A stretch of 8,059 nt of DNA, taken from a virus. Taxonomy: Duplodnaviria; Heunggongvirae; Uroviricota; Caudoviricetes. A program made the translations under genes and the position numbers. The notes beneath the pieces are model-generated. The model was not told the DNA's origin and made no database searches. It worked only from the letters and a program-made list of their open reading frames with translations. Numbering within the stretch: position 1 is the stretch's first letter; the number at the start of each line of letters is the position of its first letter. The stretch spans positions 1-8,059 of the IMG/VR virus record IMGVR_UViG_2737471861_000013; one strand, 5' to 3'. This document shows, in pieces, positions 1-6,744 of the stretch.

Positions 1-679
1 AGAATTTTTTGATGTTGTTAATCGCGGTACGGCTGTATCGTTCGCGCTGCTCGACGATCCCCAGCTTCACCATCTGGTGATATGCCTGATTAGCTGTCAG
101 GCGGATACCATACTGCTTCAGCAGTGCACTCAGTGACAGCGTGGGGCGGCTTGAGCCATCAGGCGCGTCAGCAGGAGCATCAATGGCATAGCGCGGTGCC
201 AGATTCGGTAAGCCAACAGCCTCCTGGAGTTTCTGACAGGCACCAAGCACTGAAGAGTTAGACAGGTTTAACTCCCTGCGCATAAAGTCCAGCAGAATCA
301 CTCCAGCCTGCATCTTGTCAGCAGCCTGCCCGGATAATTTTTCCGGTGCGCTGGTTACCATATCGAAAGTACGGATCACCTTCAGATGGAATGACGGGCT
401 GATCCACATTGCATAGGCATACACCAGTTCTTTGCAGACATACGTCCCCTGGTTATTTCCGCCATTAATGACGCTAACTGGTTGATTTTGTTCCAGAGGC
501 GGAATTCCCCCCTCGGTGAAAAGTTGTTCAATCAATTCACAGGTTTGCTTATTGGAGAGCCAGTATTTCGGGCGGTTTTTTTGTTCTCCCCCGGCTGCCC
601 TGTGCAGATCGTTCAGGCTGTAACGCCCATAAGCATCACGACGAACTTCAATACCATCAATGACCATCAGATTATTCAT
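1..679 (-). CDS. KilA-N domain antirepressor-like protein, 5' partial in window (N-terminus at 679, C-terminus beyond position 1)
   Basis: Hand translation of the minus strand from ATG 679..677 gives an open frame of at least 226 codons with no stop to position 1 (MNNLMVIDGIEVRRDAYGRYSLNDLHRAAGG...KNRPKYWLSNKQTCELIEQL...YAYAMWISPSFHLKVIRTF...). The YSLNDL, KYWLSN and WISPxFHLKVI motifs are typical of KilA-N domains as recalled. An AGGAG ribosome-binding site lies about 9 nt upstream. The ORF track omits it because there is no in-window stop. Confidence 0.55.
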   Translation of the reverse strand, partial: MNNLMVIDGIEVRRDAYGRYSLNDLHRAAGGEQKNRPKYWLSNKQTCELIEQLFTEGGIPPLEQNQPVSVINGGNNQGTYVCKELVYAYAMWISPSFHLKVIRTFDMVTSAPEKLSGQAADKMQAGVILLDFMRRELNLSNSSVLGACQKLQEAVGLPNLAPRYAIDAPADAPDGSSRPTLSLSALLKQYGIRLTANQAYHQMVKLGIVEQRERYSRTAINNIKKF

Positions 680-698
680 ACTTCGTTTCTCCTCTTGC

Positions 699-1088
699 TC
701 AGGCGGCTGCACCCGCCGTTTTCTCGTACTTACTGATAGTGATCTCGACCTTCCCTTCCGGGATAACCGGTCCCCACTCCACCAGCATTCTTTTCACCTG
801 GCTGTCGTCTTCCCACACACCCGCGTGGGTCAGAACGTCAAACAGCGCCTTGTTATAGTTGTCCAGATCGCGGATCCGGTTATCCGGAGGAAACAACACG
901 ATCTCCACTGAAGCAGGTGCCGACGTTGGTTTCGGCAGACGACGTAACTGTTCAACTATTGCTGCGCACGCCGCGCTCTGAAATTTTCGCCCCGCCGCGC
1001 TTATCAGGCTCTTACCTGCAAACGCCCCTTTGTTGGGGTGTCGCCAGTACGTGTTCACGCTGGGCGGAAAAGGCAGGATCAGCTTCAT
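699..1088 (-). CDS. rusA: RusA-family Holliday junction resolvase
   Basis: 129-aa ORF with LPFPPSVNTYWRH near the N-terminus, RDLDNYNKALFDVLT...GVWEDDSQV in the middle and a conserved C-terminal region, matching the RusA pattern. Its ATG overlaps the upstream stop as ATGA (translational coupling). Confidence 0.85.
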   Translation of the reverse strand: MKLILPFPPSVNTYWRHPNKGAFAGKSLISAAGRKFQSAACAAIVEQLRRLPKPTSAPASVEIVLFPPDNRIRDLDNYNKALFDVLTHAGVWEDDSQVKRMLVEWGPVIPEGKVEITISKYEKTAGAAA

Positions 1089-1738
1089 GCCACTATCTCC
1101 CTGACCAGCCGTTCTGCCTGCTGGCGAACCTGCGCCAGAAACGCCTCACCACATGCCTCAAGTTCATCGCGCCCGATGTAGCTGATTGCCGGTCCCTTCC
1201 AGGTCTTATCGAAAACAGCAATAGCACCAGCGAAGAAAGCACCTGTCGGCACCTGCTTCTCGTCTTTCGGGATAAACCAGGCAGGCAGTTCAAAACCAAT
1301 ACGCCCGCGAATAAAAGTAATATGGTCTGCATCTTCCGGCCACCACACTTCGCTGGTGGCAGCTTTGATCAGGAAAACATAGCGCCCGCCTTTATCACGC
1401 ATAGCACTGGCATGTTTCATGATGTAACGCATGCCGGTGATGTATTGCCCCTCATGCTGACTGGCGCGGCTGTATGGGGGATTACCAAAGGCAGCACCTT
1501 TAAGCTCCGCAAGACGTTCTGACCAGTCATGCGCCAGCGCGTTGTCTTCCGCCGTGTAATACGCGGCACATTTGGCGTTATCACCGTCGGTGAACAGATC
1601 CAGAACAAACGGGCCAAACAGGGTGTTAATTCCCCAGAAAATGTTGTCCGGCGTGCGCCACTGATCGCCCACTTCCTTCAGTTCATGGGCTGGTTTGTTC
1701 CGCAGTTCCACCAGCGCCTGGCAATATTTATTACTCAT
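1085..1738 (-). CDS. Phage-type DNA N6-adenine methyltransferase (Dam family)
   Basis: Contains the GNPPY catalytic motif (FGNPPYS) and DLFTDGDNAKCAAYYTAED in the pattern of phage Dam methylases. The track ORF begins at 1771, but the ATG at 1738 (MSNKYCQ...) is preceded by a GGGGG ribosome-binding site and overlaps the upstream TAA as TAATG, so 1738 is preferred. Confidence 0.8.
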   Translation of the reverse strand: MSNKYCQALVELRNKPAHELKEVGDQWRTPDNIFWGINTLFGPFVLDLFTDGDNAKCAAYYTAEDNALAHDWSERLAELKGAAFGNPPYSRASQHEGQYITGMRYIMKHASAMRDKGGRYVFLIKAATSEVWWPEDADHITFIRGRIGFELPAWFIPKDEKQVPTGAFFAGAIAVFDKTWKGPAISYIGRDELEACGEAFLAQVRQQAERLVREIVA

Positions 1739-2226
1739 TAAGCCCCCACGTAATTCCCTGACAGATACCACTCTTCACCTGATGCAGCCCGCTTGCTGCT
1801 TTTCCGTAAACACCGTTCACGACGCGCAAGAAAATTGTTTCGCTCTGGCTGGGAGTGGCTTTCACGGAATGCCTCCATCCACACCGTTGCAGCACGACGG
1901 TATAAGCCCCTGGACTCCAGTTCTTCCGCCTGGCGGCTCAGGCACAAAATCACCCGCGGGTCGTTAGTGCCGACATAGAAATTGCGCACAGGTCTGGTTT
2001 CACGAACTGGTTGTGGTTCCGGATCCTGCGCTCTCTCAGTCAGGCGCGGGAAATGTCTGCGTGTATCCCCTTCACAACGGTGAGCCACACGCCCACTCTG
2101 ACGTAACTTGCTTGCTGACTGCAGAACGCGCTGCCGTGAGTAACCTGCAAAAGCATCCGCAATGTCTCCGGAAGTACACCCCGGATGGGCTTCAATGTAT
2201 TTCTGAACTTCATTCAAAAGACTCAT
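1738..2226 (-). CDS. Putative regulator: N-terminal winged-helix-like region fused to an ANR/PerC-like C-terminal motif
   Basis: ORF in the nin-like position. The C-terminal segment AEELESRGLYRRAATVWMEAFRESHSQPERNNFLARRERCLRK fits the LE-G-Y-AA-W-A ... N-F-A-RRERC pattern recalled for small ANR/PerC-type regulators; the N-terminal roughly 50 aa look like a wHTH. Start chosen at ATG 2226; GTG 2232 is an alternative. Confidence 0.5.
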   Translation of the reverse strand: MSLLNEVQKYIEAHPGCTSGDIADAFAGYSRQRVLQSASKLRQSGRVAHRCEGDTRRHFPRLTERAQDPEPQPVRETRPVRNFYVGTNDPRVILCLSRQAEELESRGLYRRAATVWMEAFRESHSQPERNNFLARRERCLRKSSKRAASGEEWYLSGNYVGA

Positions 2227-2228
2227 GA

Positions 2229-3170
2229 TCACCCCCTGAATCCTGCCGGGATCTGGCTGTAGTCCACGTTGTCGTAACTGGCTTTGAAGTACGGGTCTTC
2301 GCGTTTTTCTGTGTACGTGCTGACGGACGGCGATAAGCGCAGGGAAAGCTCATCCCATTTTTCCCGCAGCTTCGACGGGCTGAGCACGTTACGGCACCAG
2401 AACGGATCGCGGCTGACGCGGCTGTACATCTCGCAGATTTGTTTGTGAGTACGACCATCCTGCACACACATCAGGCGAATTTCGTTTGCCCAGGCTGTCC
2501 AGTTCGGTTCTTTGGGACGAACCACCTCGCCGTCACATTCGGCGGCCTGCTCGTACAGGGCGATGATTTTTTTCCAGAGCCACTGTGCGCAGGTCAAATC
2601 ATCCTGCGTTCCCCACTGGCGCTTTTTAGGGCTGAATACAACCGCATCAGGATGGCGAGTTAAAAACTCCTGTTCAGCCGTCTGCGTGTCCGGTTGCGAA
2701 GCGTCCGGACGAGAAGTTTTTTTATCTGACGGATCATGTTTTGATTTTACTGACGGATCCCCGCCAGATTCTGACGGGTGAAAACCCGCTTTTTTGCCAG
2801 ATTTCGACGCATCAAATTTTGACGGGTCAGATTTTGATGCGTCAGATTTTGACGGGTCAGAATCTGACAGTTGAGAAAATGCCGCTGCCTGAAGCTTCGC
2901 AACGTTAAGCTGATAAACATTCGACGCATTGCGGTTACCCTGGCGACGCGCCTTACGCGTTAACCAGCCTTCTGCTTCCAGCCGTGCGATAGCCGTCCTG
3001 ACGGTACTCATCCCCGCGCCAATCTGGCGGGCAATGGTTTCAATTGATGGCCAGCACACACCTTCGTCATTACTGAAATCAGCCAGGCGGGCCATAATTG
3101 CCACGCTGGATAATTTCATGCCTGACGCTGCGCAACCATCCCATACATAGCCGGTTAATTTAGTGCTCAT
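2229..3170 (-). CDS. Replication initiator (lambda O-like replisome organiser): N-terminal HTH DNA-binding domain, repetitive linker, C-terminal protein-interaction domain
   Basis: 313-aa ORF preceded by a GAGGT ribosome-binding site. The N-terminus has an HTH-like segment (SIETIARQIGAGMSTVRTAIARLEAEGWL). A low-complexity DPSKSDASKSDPSKFDASKS linker is encoded by tandem DNA repeats, as ori iterons lie inside lambda O. It sits directly downstream of the cro/cII-like genes. Confidence 0.75.
   Translation of the reverse strand: MSTKLTGYVWDGCAASGMKLSSVAIMARLADFSNDEGVCWPSIETIARQIGAGMSTVRTAIARLEAEGWLTRKARRQGNRNASNVYQLNVAKLQAAAFSQLSDSDPSKSDASKSDPSKFDASKSGKKAGFHPSESGGDPSVKSKHDPSDKKTSRPDASQPDTQTAEQEFLTRHPDAVVFSPKKRQWGTQDDLTCAQWLWKKIIALYEQAAECDGEVVRPKEPNWTAWANEIRLMCVQDGRTHKQICEMYSRVSRDPFWCRNVLSPSKLREKWDELSLRLSPSVSTYTEKREDPYFKASYDNVDYSQIPAGFRG
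2721..2875. repeat. Tandem iteron-like repeats (about 8 copies of a ~15-bp unit, consensus near ATTTTGACGGGTCAG) inside the initiator gene; candidate origin of replication
   Basis: Visible directly: ...atctgacggatc / tactgacggatcc / attctgacgggtg / atttcgacgcatc / attttgacgggtcag / attttgatgcgtcag / attttgacgggtcag / aatctgacagttg. An A/T run (agtttttttatc) lies at the low-coordinate edge. Confidence 0.6.
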
Positions 3171-3179
3171 GACCGACCT

Positions 3180-3518
3180 CTATTTCCATGAATTTACGAC
3201 GAAACTGTTCGAGCGGGCTGAAGCACTCATGCTCATAGCCTTCACGGAGGTAGATAACCCGTTGTGTTTCCGGCTCCCAACGAATGACTCTGACGGGCAC
3301 TCCGTAGTGATCTTTGAACCAGCGGTTAACTTGTCGCAAAGGACTGTCTCCTTCTGCCGGTTGAAATCCCCCACAGCCCACTCTGCAAAGCTGTGGGTTA
3401 CAATTTCCCTGTCACCTGGTACATTCACTGCATAGCAATACTCCACCTTCGCTTTTCCACCCGGTACAGGAAGCGCAATCAGTTGCGAGCGACGGTAGTG
3501 TGTTGTTAAACTGTTCAT
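3180..3518 (-). CDS. Hypothetical small protein (reading frame of the C-terminal half uncertain)
   Basis: The ATG at 3518 overlaps the upstream stop as ATGA, and the TAG stop sits inside the ribosome-binding site of the initiator gene, so the operon architecture fits. However, the C-terminal half is Ser-rich, and an alternative frame over 3160..3381 gives a more protein-like sequence (see findings). Confidence 0.4.
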
Positions 3519-4066
3519 GCGTTAGTTTCTCCACAGTCACGACACGCCACGGCGCCCGGAGCTGCACACTCGCGGGCGTCATTACTTTCTGAAATGCAAA
3601 AAATTTTGTAGACCAGTGCTGCATGCTCCTGCAGCTTCGAAATTGAGAGGTACAGCTCGTCGTTAATTGCTGTCTTCTCATGCGGTTCCACTACACCGTC
3701 TTCAATTGCTGAACGAATCTGTTTTGAATAACTGCCGATCTGTTCAATGACCTCCAGCAGGCGTTGGTTGATATCGGCGTTGTCCACATCCTCGATATCA
3801 GGAAGAGACACAAAGACGCCATTTGCAGACTGCGCCACAGCGTCAGCAATGAAGTGAGTTCCACCAGCACGTTGCAAAATCATTGCCCATCCCAGCGGGA
3901 AAATCTGATCGCCATCGGCACGAAGGCGGTTAAATAATGCGTTCTCTGTTACGTCCAGCCAGTCAGCAGCTTCAGCGTAACCCCCCGGCAACGCTGCGAT
4001 AGTTTTTCTGACAGCTTTCACGTACCACTCAGGCTGTTTTTCTACTTTCCAGTGATGCTTACCCAC
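3515..4066 (-). CDS. YdaT-like (CII-position) regulatory protein, with a C-terminal Cys cluster
   Basis: Second gene of the early operon after the YdaS/Cro-like gene. The track ORF starts at 4177 and would overlap the cro-like gene by about 80 nt. A GTG at 4066 is preceded by a strong GAGGAG ribosome-binding site with 6-nt spacing, so that start is preferred. The C-terminus carries C-x8-C-x7-C-x2-C. Confidence 0.5.
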
Positions 4067-4094
4067 GGTTAACTCCTCGTTTCTGTGGTTACGT

Positions 4095-4358
4095 TTACGC
4101 AGCTGAACCGCTAACTTTTGAATAGCACTCAGGTAATCCATCATTTGGATTGGGGTAAATATCAGGACGCAGTTCATGAGGGGTCACGGACCAGTTTCCC
4201 AACTCACAAAGTTGTAAAACCCGTTCTGACGGGACTTGATTGTTAATTACCCAATTAGCGACGGATTGAGTGGACTTAAAACCAAAGTGACGGGCTACTT
4301 CAGATAAAGATTTTCCCGCAGCTTTTACTGCTTTCTCTGTGTAGTTTTGAGATGACAT
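4095..4358 (-). CDS. Cro/YdaS-family HTH regulator (first gene of the early-right operon)
   Basis: 87-aa protein with an HTH (GKSLSEVARHFGFKSTQSVANWV) and an ELRPDI motif as recalled for YdaS-type proteins. It is divergent from the repressor gene across an operator-bearing intergenic region, with a GAGGAGAAAGG ribosome-binding site upstream. Confidence 0.75.
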   Translation of the reverse strand: MSSQNYTEKAVKAAGKSLSEVARHFGFKSTQSVANWVINNQVPSERVLQLCELGNWSVTPHELRPDIYPNPNDGLPECYSKVSGSAA

Positions 4359-4388
4359 ACCTTTCTCCTCTGAAATTCAGAGGGATGA

Positions 4389-4426
4389 TGCTACTTAAAA
4401 TAGCAAAATGCAACTACTTAAAATAG
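4389..4426. promoter_or_regulatory. OR-like operator region: two tandem copies of the CTACTTAAAATAG core, 23 bp apart, between the divergent cro-like and repressor genes
   Basis: TGCTACTTAAAATAGCA (4389..4405) is a 17-bp near-palindrome, 14/17 self-complementary. A second copy, CTACTTAAAATAG, lies at 4414..4426. The same motif recurs at 6636..6652. Confidence 0.55.
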
Positions 4427-5169
4427 AAATGACTAGCGTATGTGATGCGAGTAATCTTCTACCTATGGTAGAAGAACAGAAGTATCCAGATTTCGCCAAG
4501 AGACTAAATGAGCTAATGACAAACAAGGGAATTTCTGTCACCCAACTCAAAAGTCTTGTGGGCGTTACATATGAAATGGCGCGGCGATACACAATCGGCG
4601 CTGCGAAGCCTCGTGCCTCTGTCATGAATAAACTTGCATTGGCTCTGGGGGTATCAGCTTCATATTTAGAATATGGTGTTGGCGAGAGAGAAGGATGTAA
4701 GGAAATGGCAAGCATCCCCAATCCAACAAAACCCGATGTATACAGGATAGAAGTTTTGGATCTTAGCGTTAGCGCAGGACCTGGGACCTATATGCTTTCA
4801 GACTATGTTGATGTGCTCTACGCCATTGAGTTCACAACAGAGCATGCCCGTTCTCTTTTCGGTAATCGTTCTCAAGATGATATTAAAGTTATGACTGTAA
4901 ATGGCGACAGCATGTCCCCTACTCTAGTTTCCGGAGATCGACTGTTTGTCGACATTTCTGTTCGCAACTTCCAAACTGATGGTGTTTACTCTTTCGTTTA
5001 TGGTAAGACGTTCCACGTTAAACGTCTACAAATGCAAGGCAACAAACTCGCCGTTCTTTCGGATAATCCAGCCTATGAGAAATGGTACATTGATGAGAAG
5101 TCCCAAGATCAACTTTATGTTATGGGCAAAGCATTGATACACGAATCAATTAAATACAACCGGCTTTAG
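4408..5169 (+). CDS. cI: CI-type prophage repressor (N-terminal HTH, C-terminal S24 LexA-like autopeptidase)
   Basis: HTH segment FAKRLNELMTNKGISVTQLKSLVGVTYEMARRY; S24 motifs GDSM (catalytic Ser) and VKRL (catalytic Lys); candidate Ala-Gly autocleavage site (SVSAGPG). No ribosome-binding site precedes any candidate start, consistent with a leaderless transcript. The true start may be ATG 4429 or 4465 rather than 4408. Confidence 0.85.
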   Translation: MQLLKIEMTSVCDASNLLPMVEEQKYPDFAKRLNELMTNKGISVTQLKSLVGVTYEMARRYTIGAAKPRASVMNKLALALGVSASYLEYGVGEREGCKEMASIPNPTKPDVYRIEVLDLSVSAGPGTYMLSDYVDVLYAIEFTTEHARSLFGNRSQDDIKVMTVNGDSMSPTLVSGDRLFVDISVRNFQTDGVYSFVYGKTFHVKRLQMQGNKLAVLSDNPAYEKWYIDEKSQDQLYVMGKALIHESIKYNRL

Positions 5170-5339
5170 TTCTTCGTTTAGACTATAGAACTAAAGGTAA
5201 AAAAATAATATTTAGCAAGCAAGTGCTATTACTAATAGTTGTTTTACTCTCTTATTTTTATTAAACATTATCATTAACAATATAAAATAATCACCCTGCG
5301 TAAATTACAATATGCTGGGGGTCGAAAGGATAGAGAAAT

Positions 5340-6416
5340 ATGACAAAATCAATTTGTTTTTTTAATCATAAAGGTGGGGTAAGTAAAACCACAACAACCT
5401 TCAATCTTGGATGGGCACTTGCGGATGAAGGCAAGAAAGTATTGATGGTTGACCTTGATTCGCAATGTAATCTAACAGGAATGGTTCTTGGCTATGAAAA
5501 GATTGATGAGGGTTTAGATTCTTTTTATTCTAGCAGAGATAACTTAACTCTTGGACCTATTGTAGAATATTTGATTAATGGCGGACAACCTGAAGCATAC
5601 CTTGAAAAAGAAACGGGAAAATTACACCCTACACTGCATGAAAACCTTCTGCTTCTTCCCGGACATTTAGATGTTTCGGACTTAGATTCACAGATAAGTG
5701 TTTCTCTAAAAATTGCTGCTGGTATTCCTGCTACAAGAAATATACCAGGGAACCTGCCAAAAATATTACAGCTAATCGCCATGAAGAATAATATTGATTA
5801 CATTCTTTATGATCTCAGCCCTAATGTTGGAGGTTTAAATGAAGTAGTTCTCATGTCAAGTGACTATTTTATCGTACCTGTAGCTCCAGACTTTTTTTGC
5901 TGGCAAGCAATTCGCTCTCTCTCAAAAAATATACCTCGCTGGCACAAAGAATTAGCATTATTTAAAGAAAATAATGATGGTAACTCTTCACAATCAATTA
6001 AAAATGCACCGCAGTTTCTAGGTATGATTCAGCAGAGATACAGGCCGCGTAAAGGAGCACCTGTAAAATCTTTCGAAAAATGGATGGCAGCTATCCGTGA
6101 TGCTGTTGATTCGATCTTAGTGCCAAATCTAGAAAAAATTACCTGCATAATTCCACGAGATAAAGTGCAACATGCAATTAACAAAACAACAGTCAGTGGA
6201 GATTTATCAGCCTATGATCTTGCGCATATTTCCGATTTCAACTCATTAATCGCAATAAGCCAACAACTAGCGACACCTGTTTTCTCCATCAGTGATCAGC
6301 AAATTCGCGATTCAGGGCAATTTGGGCATGCCTTAAATACAATGAAATCAAGCAGAGACGCCTTTAACGAACAATTTAAAGGGCTGGCTCAACGAGTTCT
6401 AGAACTTACAAAGTAA
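5340..6416 (+). CDS. Orphan ParA/MinD-family (SIMIBI) ATPase with a ~100-aa C-terminal extension; no adjacent ParB
   Basis: Deviant Walker A KGGVSKTT at residues 11-18, an A'-like VLMVDLDSQCN and a B-like IDYILYDLSPN. Ribosome-binding site AAAGGA about 9 nt upstream. Markedly AT-rich compared with the replication region. Lies between the repressor gene and the left operator. Confidence 0.8.
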   Translation: MTKSICFFNHKGGVSKTTTTFNLGWALADEGKKVLMVDLDSQCNLTGMVLGYEKIDEGLDSFYSSRDNLTLGPIVEYLINGGQPEAYLEKETGKLHPTLHENLLLLPGHLDVSDLDSQISVSLKIAAGIPATRNIPGNLPKILQLIAMKNNIDYILYDLSPNVGGLNEVVLMSSDYFIVPVAPDFFCWQAIRSLSKNIPRWHKELALFKENNDGNSSQSIKNAPQFLGMIQQRYRPRKGAPVKSFEKWMAAIRDAVDSILVPNLEKITCIIPRDKVQHAINKTTVSGDLSAYDLAHISDFNSLIAISQQLATPVFSISDQQIRDSGQFGHALNTMKSSRDAFNEQFKGLAQRVLELTK

Positions 6417-6423
6417 TGCATGT

Positions 6424-6459
6424 GCCCGGCCGCATAACCGGGCTTTACTCTTCTTTCTC
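6424..6459 (+). terminator. Rho-independent terminator candidate after the ParA-like gene
   Basis: GCCCGG-ccgcataa-CCGGGC hairpin (6-bp GC stem) followed by the T-rich tract TTTACTCTTCTTTCTC, 8 nt after the stop codon. Confidence 0.55.
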
Positions 6460-6635
6460 CCTGATTAATCTCATAAAAAACTCCCTCCTCATAATTCACT
6501 ATGCTCAATACCTACTCCAACTTCGTGCGATATTTTCAGTTTACAGCATAGTAAATCAGCAAAAACATTTAACTTTCAATTAATTATAGAAAAATCATAG
6601 ACAACAACAAATATCTACTTTTTGTTGTTGATTTT

Positions 6636-6652
6636 TGCTACTTTAAGTAGCA
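6636..6652. promoter_or_regulatory. OL-like operator: 17-bp palindrome TGCTACTTTAAGTAGCA matching the OR sites, with nearby half-sites
   Basis: Near-perfect dyad sharing the TGCTACTT...AAGTAGCA arms with 4389..4405. Extra half-sites CTACTT (~6615) and AAGTAGC (~6695). Overlaps -35/-10-like hexamers (TTGCTA ... CATAAT/ATGTAA). A 10-bp palindrome CAACAACAAA/TTTGTTGTTG lies at 6602..6630. Confidence 0.5.
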
Positions 6653-6744
6653 ACATAATGTAAGCTATCACGAACAGGCAGGACGCCCACGAAGTAGCCG
6701 CCTGGGGCATATGAAGTCCAGGATGATTCGTTAGCAACAAAAAA

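Follow-up and report, generated by a model that had tools for sequence, protein, structure and literature searches.

A stand-alone ParA/MinD-type ATPase gene in the repressor-to-operator interval of a lambdoid Escherichia coli prophage: a candidate for a new phage-versus-phage conflict gene

The RexA/RexB pair combines a sensor with a membrane protein, and BstA belongs to the DNA-binding proteins of the KilA-N type. Both rexAB, in phage lambda, and bstA, in Salmonella phage BTP1, are housed in the interval between cI and N, a known mosaic hotspot (PMC8585504). The 8,059-nucleotide (nt) stretch of DNA analysed here (IMG/VR record IMGVR_UViG_2737471861_000013, positions 1 to 8,059; hereafter the window) carries in this slot a gene for a 358-residue ATPase with a deviant Walker A motif and a ParA/MinD fold (5340..6416, plus strand), a member of an uncharacterised '3pg5-like' family. 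Like rexAB and bstA, this gene follows cI and precedes the leftward operator and promoter (OL/pL) in the same orientation, ends in a terminator of its own and is presumed to be expressed in the lysogen; as with bstA, one gene on its own keeps its place beside the repressor in different genera (PMC8585504). There is, however, no sequence or fold relationship between RexAB or BstA and the ParA/MinD ATPase. We conclude that an integrated lambdoid prophage here carries a self-contained moron in its repressor-to-OL hotspot, and that the gene is a good candidate, still to be tried by experiment, for a new function in phage-versus-phage conflict rather than in DNA partition.

Relative to ParA, Soj and McdA (PDB 8ray, 6iub, 6noo), the window ATPase contains about 100 residues of family-specific insertions, it lacks a ParB or McdB partner and a centromere, and its replicon is integrated; classical ParA, Soj and MinD match its sequence around the P-loop only. 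The closest solved structure is 3pg5 (DIP2308 of Corynebacterium diphtheriae), a structural-genomics protein that is approximately 22-25% identical to the window ATPase and in which the QQRYRPR motif described below is not conserved. Because its function is unassigned, none can be transferred from it. A ParA/Soj-like ATPase and an adjacent HEPN protein were predicted in 2013 to form a toxin-antitoxin dyad with the ATPase as antitoxin (Anantharaman et al. 2013, PMC3710099), and distant members of the window ATPase family form such dyads, although the published HEPN family is MAE_18760 whereas the partners found here match Pfam RiboL-PSP, and the published dyad is itself a prediction. PDC-M28B, a candidate defence system with a ParA-like component, matches the window ATPase over residues 3-40 (the P-loop) only, so that the latter is not a member. 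PDC-S43 (DUF3024) occupies the c2-pL slot together with the ATPase gene in ST160, SE1 and Morganella; it is not the same protein, and the window does not encode it. A reading of the window made from its sequence alone (the sequence-only reading) had regarded a function of this kind as undescribed for ParA-like proteins. This stands for the stand-alone, phage-borne clade as repressor-adjacent cargo, for which neither a description nor experimental work was found in the searchable literature, but not for the fold, the superfamily or the ATPase-HEPN dyad predicted in 2013 (PMC3710099), which were already known.

The window covers the early and immunity regions of a lambdoid, CPS-53/KpLE1-like prophage of E. 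coli. An identical sequence is found in strain OkiPb01716, where the prophage is integrated at a tRNA-Thr gene next to proA and possesses a tyrosine integrase as well as head, tail and lysis genes. The cI-type repressor gene (4465..5169, plus strand, from the RefSeq start, with a longest open reading frame (ORF) from 4408) encodes HTH_3 and Peptidase_S24 domains and diverges from a cro-like gene (4095-4358, minus strand) across the rightward operator OR (4385..4430), which consists of two operator copies of the CTACTTAAAATAG type between these genes. Two operator copies, inverted with respect to those of OR, constitute OL (6611..6656) and mark the start of the early-left operon; the OL and OR operator pairs are 80% complementary over 46 nt, with the core palindrome CTACTT..AAGTAG. 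The ATPase gene, which carries the RefSeq label 'ParA family protein' (WP_000167381), is located between the repressor gene and OL and is co-oriented with the former, which is the lambda cI-rexAB-OL topology and agrees with the rexAB-type slot assigned to it earlier.

The boundaries of the cassette that contains this gene are exact, being the cI stop codon and OL. When the window is compared by blastn with related E. coli prophages that have the same cI allele (92-93% identical) and other cargo, homology stops at 5171-5173 and resumes at 6585-6614, which delimits an exchangeable cassette, or moron, at 5174..6600. In one of these prophages (L097) the slot (3277-3976) holds two small overlapping hypothetical genes of 115 and 126 amino acids (aa), which are unrelated to the ATPase and have no significant match to defence models, and in another (L098) it holds a different ParA-superfamily gene. 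The ATPase gene has a GC content of 37.7% (27.6% at third codon positions) and the upstream spacer (5170..5339, plus strand) one of 27.1%, versus 53-56% in the O-like, Dam and RusA genes. Within the spacer, a promoter-like element is predicted at 5262-5291 (ATTAACA at 5273-5279 and TATAAAAT at 5281-5288, plus strand), followed by the ribosome-binding site AAGGA (5326-5330, plus strand), and an intrinsic-terminator-like hairpin of 6 bp, all GC, is situated directly 3' of the stop codon (6424..6443, plus strand). Because no terminator is predicted in the spacer between cI and the ATPase gene, read-through from the cI promoter is also possible. An element of the form ...ATTAAC...TATAAAATAAAGG... 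accompanies the gene in the Klebsiella, Pectobacterium, Lonsdalea, Salmonella phage ST160, Morganella and Pantoea copies, and every cassette compared has its own hairpin after the stop codon, with a sequence that differs between cassettes; 3' of this terminator the compared cassettes show no conservation, the downstream DNA being unrelated. The locus thus displays the characteristics by which a phage moron is recognised, namely a predicted promoter-like element, a terminator, atypical composition and insertion between genes that are adjacent in related phages, and the AT-richness, ribosome-binding site and terminator that had been read from the sequence are borne out. The cassette is present at 99% identity or more in approximately 109 of 5,426 complete E. 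coli genomes (~2%), and 200 of the 202 places at which E. coli matches occur are chromosomal. Near-identical DNA was not found in sequenced phage isolates.

Other possible components of the cassette were considered and rejected. A conserved small convergent ORF that might represent a hidden partner is absent in the window, and its Salmonella and Klebsiella copies resemble each other only weakly (29% over 41 aa). A conserved downstream RNA or peptide in 6417-6600 found no support, as cassettes share only the position of the terminator and an Rfam scan of the cassette was null. The upstream repressor is not an obligate partner, its type varying with context (S24-type, HTH-only or Arc).

Judged from its motifs, the product is a catalytically intact ParA/MinD-type ATPase. 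Pfam assigns it to AAA_31 (2e-29) and CbiA (5e-14), and the motifs named in the sequence-only reading are located at residues 11-18 (KGGVSKTT), 38-42 (DLDSQ) and 155-158 (the hydrophobic-D Walker B motif, ILYD). Among 41 homologues, K11 and K16 of the deviant Walker A sequence NHKGGVSKTT, D38 and D40 of Walker A' and D158 of Walker B are invariant, and two further invariant motifs, QQRYRPR (231-237) and DFNSLIA (299-305), are specific to the family. By analogy with all members of the fold, these intact motifs should allow an ATP-dependent sandwich dimer that serves as a nucleotide switch. The three-dimensional ParA/MinD fold is complete in the predicted structure, in which strand 1 begins at residue 3 and leaves no room for an N-terminal helix-turn-helix (HTH) domain, as had been noted. 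In contrast, the C-terminal extension of about 100 aa that had been proposed does not exist as a domain; the terminal helix (330-357) is confidently modelled and probably packs against the core. No NCBIfam model reaches its cut-off with this protein: ParA_partition scores 55.8 bits versus 180, RepA, SopA and PrgP are likewise far below their cut-offs, and minD_bact scores 35 bits versus 213. The latter score, the lack of a membrane-targeting tail and the lack of min or flagellar neighbours place the protein outside the MinD/FlhG/FleN group. A viral fold search against BFVD returned weak matches only.

Full-length homologues number in the thousands, and therefore the ORF is not a chance one. 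They are approximately 357 aa long and 60-65% identical across the gamma-, beta-, alpha-, delta- and epsilon-proteobacteria. A profile search of 1.84 billion cluster representatives retrieved 278 clusters at E <= 1e-30, of which the whole clade of the window protein makes up one. One relative (P0096) has an extra N-terminal domain, PF22746, which was uninformative by eye.

Repressor-adjacent placement of this gene is recurrent, as a survey of where homologues lie established. Homologues that are 59-88% identical to the window protein hold this slot in prophages of seven other genera. Placement beside a repressor was seen in E. coli, Salmonella, Klebsiella, Pseudomonas, Morganella, Pectobacterium and Acinetobacter, in contexts whose repressors, replication modules and integration sites are unrelated. 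The cases include Salmonella prophages at three or more integration sites (73% identity), Klebsiella (61%), Pseudomonas capeferrum (64%), Morganella and Pectobacterium, and an Acinetobacter copy that follows an Arc-type repressor. In the sequenced P22-like phages ST160 and SE1 the order is c2, DUF3024, the ParA-like gene and then gene 24. The DUF3024 gene that shares the slot in ST160 (L093, 4521-4862), SE1 and Morganella (L013, 5418-5759) corresponds over its full length to the PADLOC single-gene candidate PDC-S43 (2e-41). Elsewhere, homologues occupy the Q-holin interval in Serratia, the arc/ant region in Chromobacterium, the ends of some prophages, the end of a P4-like satellite in Aeromonas and an int-AlpA-primase island beside HicAB, DarTG and a type I restriction-modification system in Megalodesulfovibrio (M. 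gigas), and a homologue of 31% identity lies at the variable accessory end of a Pf-type inovirus prophage. Few full-length matches are on plasmids; of two that were examined, one is among genes for a contact-dependent inhibition toxin, umuDC and PD-T4-5-like abortive infection (Abi), and the other is at a prophage end. On a Pantoea plasmid, a PD-T4-5-like Abi gene is two genes away from the ATPase homologue. A second long ParA lineage is also found downstream of cI, in P. aeruginosa phi297 (L107, 3510-4562), Klebsiella phage ST11-VIM1phi8.2 (L108, 3498-4574) and L098 (3496-4581). Its members are 23% identical to the window protein and likewise have 3pg5 as best PDB match; the 'ParA family' gene of L098 was accordingly rejected as an allele of the window gene.

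Distant relatives of the ATPase are coupled or fused to effectors. In relatives that are 35-45% identical (from Chloroflexota, Cyanobacteria, Acidobacteriota, Spirochaetes and others), the gene that follows begins before the ATPase gene has ended, with an overlap of 17 or 4 nt. This coupled gene, upstream of which the ATPase gene lies, encodes a HEPN_RiboL-PSP protein with an RNase motif in 16 loci and a second Rx4H protein, of 311 aa and ending in RNDAIH, in 4 loci. Proteins of 311-339 aa in the coupled position are found in L051, L052, L079 (~7020-7985) and L070 (1132-2151); they gave no Pfam match where scanned (L052 and L079) and no PADLOC match (L052), and the Rx4H end of the L052 copy (RNDAIH) suggests, from its sequence, a HEPN-like family that has yet to be described. 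Fusions (observed in P0183, P0185, P0206, P0207, P0209, P0258 and P0130) join the ATPase to a C-terminal CE-clan (Ulp1/RickCE-like) cysteine protease in five cluster representatives of approximately 610-670 aa, to Schlafen/AlbA_2 and HATPase_c_4 domains in a protein of 731 aa, and to HTH_3 in one of 431 aa; tandem ATPases also occur in the family. The window ATPase and the dyad ATPases belong to one sequence family, since they are 35-45% identical over their full length and the same two family-specific peptide patterns retrieve both. In a neighbour-joining tree, the window protein falls in a separate clade composed only of partner-less copies. Neither the window nor any member of the clade at 49% identity or more has a HEPN gene beside the ATPase; such genes are confined to the distant clades.

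The pattern of one conserved NTPase and changing effectors is typical in conflict systems, and the cI-N hotspot houses rexAB and bstA; for these reasons we prefer a role in conflict between mobile elements, the simplest form of which would be protection of the lysogen from superinfection, and to this reading we would give an even chance. In this mechanism, the ATPase would be expressed in the lysogen through a promoter of its own or through transcription that continues from cI, and would protect the lysogen, and hence the prophage, from superinfecting phages. It would represent the sensor or switch half of the ParA-like plus effector systems of its relatives, here operating without a dedicated effector, and its ATP-bound dimer might bind to DNA, to the nucleoid or to some component of an infecting phage, thereby sequestering or blocking its target. 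Expression in lysogens, dimerisation, binding of DNA or a target, and an anti-phage phenotype are what we infer; the case for defence is one of association only. More tentatively, and with rather less confidence, we propose that a stand-alone ParA/MinD ATPase without nuclease, toxin or membrane effector could be a new single-gene immunity factor of prophages and satellites, acting by ATP-dependent binding or sequestration of superinfecting phage DNA or a key phage protein, with the HEPN-, protease- and Schlafen-coupled relatives as 'armed' versions of the same sensor.

Several observations weigh against a conflict role. The clade of the window protein never has an effector partner, and the effector-coupled relatives form separate, more distant branches, so that function may have diverged. 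Since there is no effector domain, a sequestration mechanism would be without direct precedent. About one third of the close-clade loci are lone insertions between housekeeping genes, such as prfC|X|azlDC and dnaKJ|X|rdgC, with no obvious defence neighbours. PADLOC-DB 2.0 contains no full-length match, the P-loop match to PDC-M28B being the only one, and no functional study of this ATPase family, of orf23 of ST160/SE1 or of 3pg5 was found in the searchable literature. The correspondence of R235/R237 to the DNA-binding arginine of Soj is modelled from fold topology only, and the profile-to-PDB alignment did not reach the region of RYRPR and this arginine. Finally, a published account of the P2 hotspot took ParA-like genes there for putative partition systems, without testing them (Rousset et al., PMC9122126).

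Partition or maintenance, in which the ATPase would segregate or position an excised or episomal prophage, a satellite or a Pf replicative form through an unrecognised adaptor or centromere, is the least probable of the explanations that we weighed. P4-like satellites and Pf phages can be episomal. The fold is nearest to those of ParA, McdA and Soj, PHROG 164 and depositors use the term 'ParA-like partition protein', and P2 hotspots often hold putative partition systems (PMC9122126). The prophage is, however, integrated and has an integrase, nearly all E. coli matches are chromosomal, and the ParA_partition score falls far short of its cut-off. No ParB, adaptor or repeat array is conserved beside any copy, and the sequences that follow the terminator are unrelated between cassettes. 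A centromere array was sought and rejected, there being no tandem or iteron-like repeats in the cassette; the region 5100-6800 contains no tandem repeats, and the only repeats seen are the OR/OL operators. The few plasmid matches that were examined are among toxin, Abi or prophage genes rather than partition loci, and single-gene islets between housekeeping genes leave nothing to partition. Taken together, integration, the missing ParB and centromere, flanks that are unrelated and the occurrence of single-gene islets disfavour partition. The gene was also proposed from sequence to be accessory cargo without a ParB or centromere partner, and this has held up: the window has neither, nor does any annotated homologue context, of which more than 25 were examined, and homologues are not consistently paired with ParB on plasmids or phage-plasmids.

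The 2013 prediction that the ATPase is the antitoxin to a HEPN toxin (PMC3710099) raises the question of counter-defence, in which a solo ATPase would mimic the ATPase of ParA-like plus HEPN or protease systems and neutralise their effectors in the host or in rival elements, so that a phage or satellite could establish itself and replicate. Such an orphan 'antitoxin' would be consistent with the arrangement in relatives, where the ATPase gene comes first and the HEPN gene is translationally coupled to it, with the almost exclusively phage- or satellite-borne nature of the solo clade, and with at least one effector-coupled relative from an Enterobacterales metagenome-assembled genome (L070). 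We nevertheless consider it improbable, because the solo clade is on a separate branch and is only 35-45% identical to the coupled ATPases, because cI-adjacent placement opposite to the late and early operons suggests lysogenic rather than early lytic expression, and because coupled systems are rare among the proteobacterial matches in the sample. A moron that acts on host physiology or lysogeny control, by modulating a MinD/ParA-type host process (division, flagella, pili or chemoreceptor arrays) or by tuning induction, and that confers a fitness effect other than immunity, is unlikely, if less so than counter-defence or partition. The family keeps 60-65% identity in hosts whose envelopes and motility systems differ greatly, which speaks for a universal target; the protein lacks a membrane-targeting tail, genes of the min, flh or bcs type were not seen nearby, and the effector coupling of relatives points to conflict systems.

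If the lysogen-protection reading is correct, the gene would define an unusual class of prophage immunity, that of a positioning-type ATPase without an enzymatic effector, and would provide the first experimental handle on a 278-cluster family whose only solved structure is 3pg5. It would also put to the test the 2013 prediction of ParA-like plus HEPN systems, with the ATPase as sensor or as antitoxin. A routine annotation would be corrected as well: phage records such as those of ST160, SE1 and phi297 use the label 'ParA-like partition protein' (some phage records have 'regulatory protein'), and the partition label wrongly suggests that integrating phages are maintained like plasmids. Since around 2% of complete E. 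coli genomes carry the gene, as do Salmonella, Klebsiella, Serratia, Pseudomonas and other prophages, any phenotype would bear on the host range of therapeutic phages.

Other features of the window lie outside the cassette. Five to six iterons of 15 nt, resembling CAGATTTTGACGGGT and spaced by 15 nt, occur at 2798-2872 inside a replication gene (2229-3170, minus strand) and are probably the phage origin within an O-like/HTH_36 initiator gene; an Rfam match to 'mir-5880' at the same position is an artefact of these repeats. Between OL and the first early-left ORF, an unannotated element (6667-6780) is 92-100% identical in approximately 1,500 of 5,426 complete E. coli genomes and is thus far commoner in E. 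coli than the ParA-like cassette. It contains a terminator-like hairpin on the minus strand (6762-6743) and may be the transcript end of an ECs1072-family gene or a pL leader. The ECs1072-family gene itself ('ECs1072 family phage-associated protein'; 6999-7433, minus strand) is AT-rich, is oriented opposite to the early-left operon within which it lies and overlaps by its 3' end a 68-aa ORF (6821-7027, plus strand; PHROG 1744); it looks like a second moron-like insert. Downstream, at 7544-7766 (plus strand), the window matches the full Rfam model of the small RNA STnc100 with 42.2 bits (E 1e-6), which narrowly misses the gathering score of 47.

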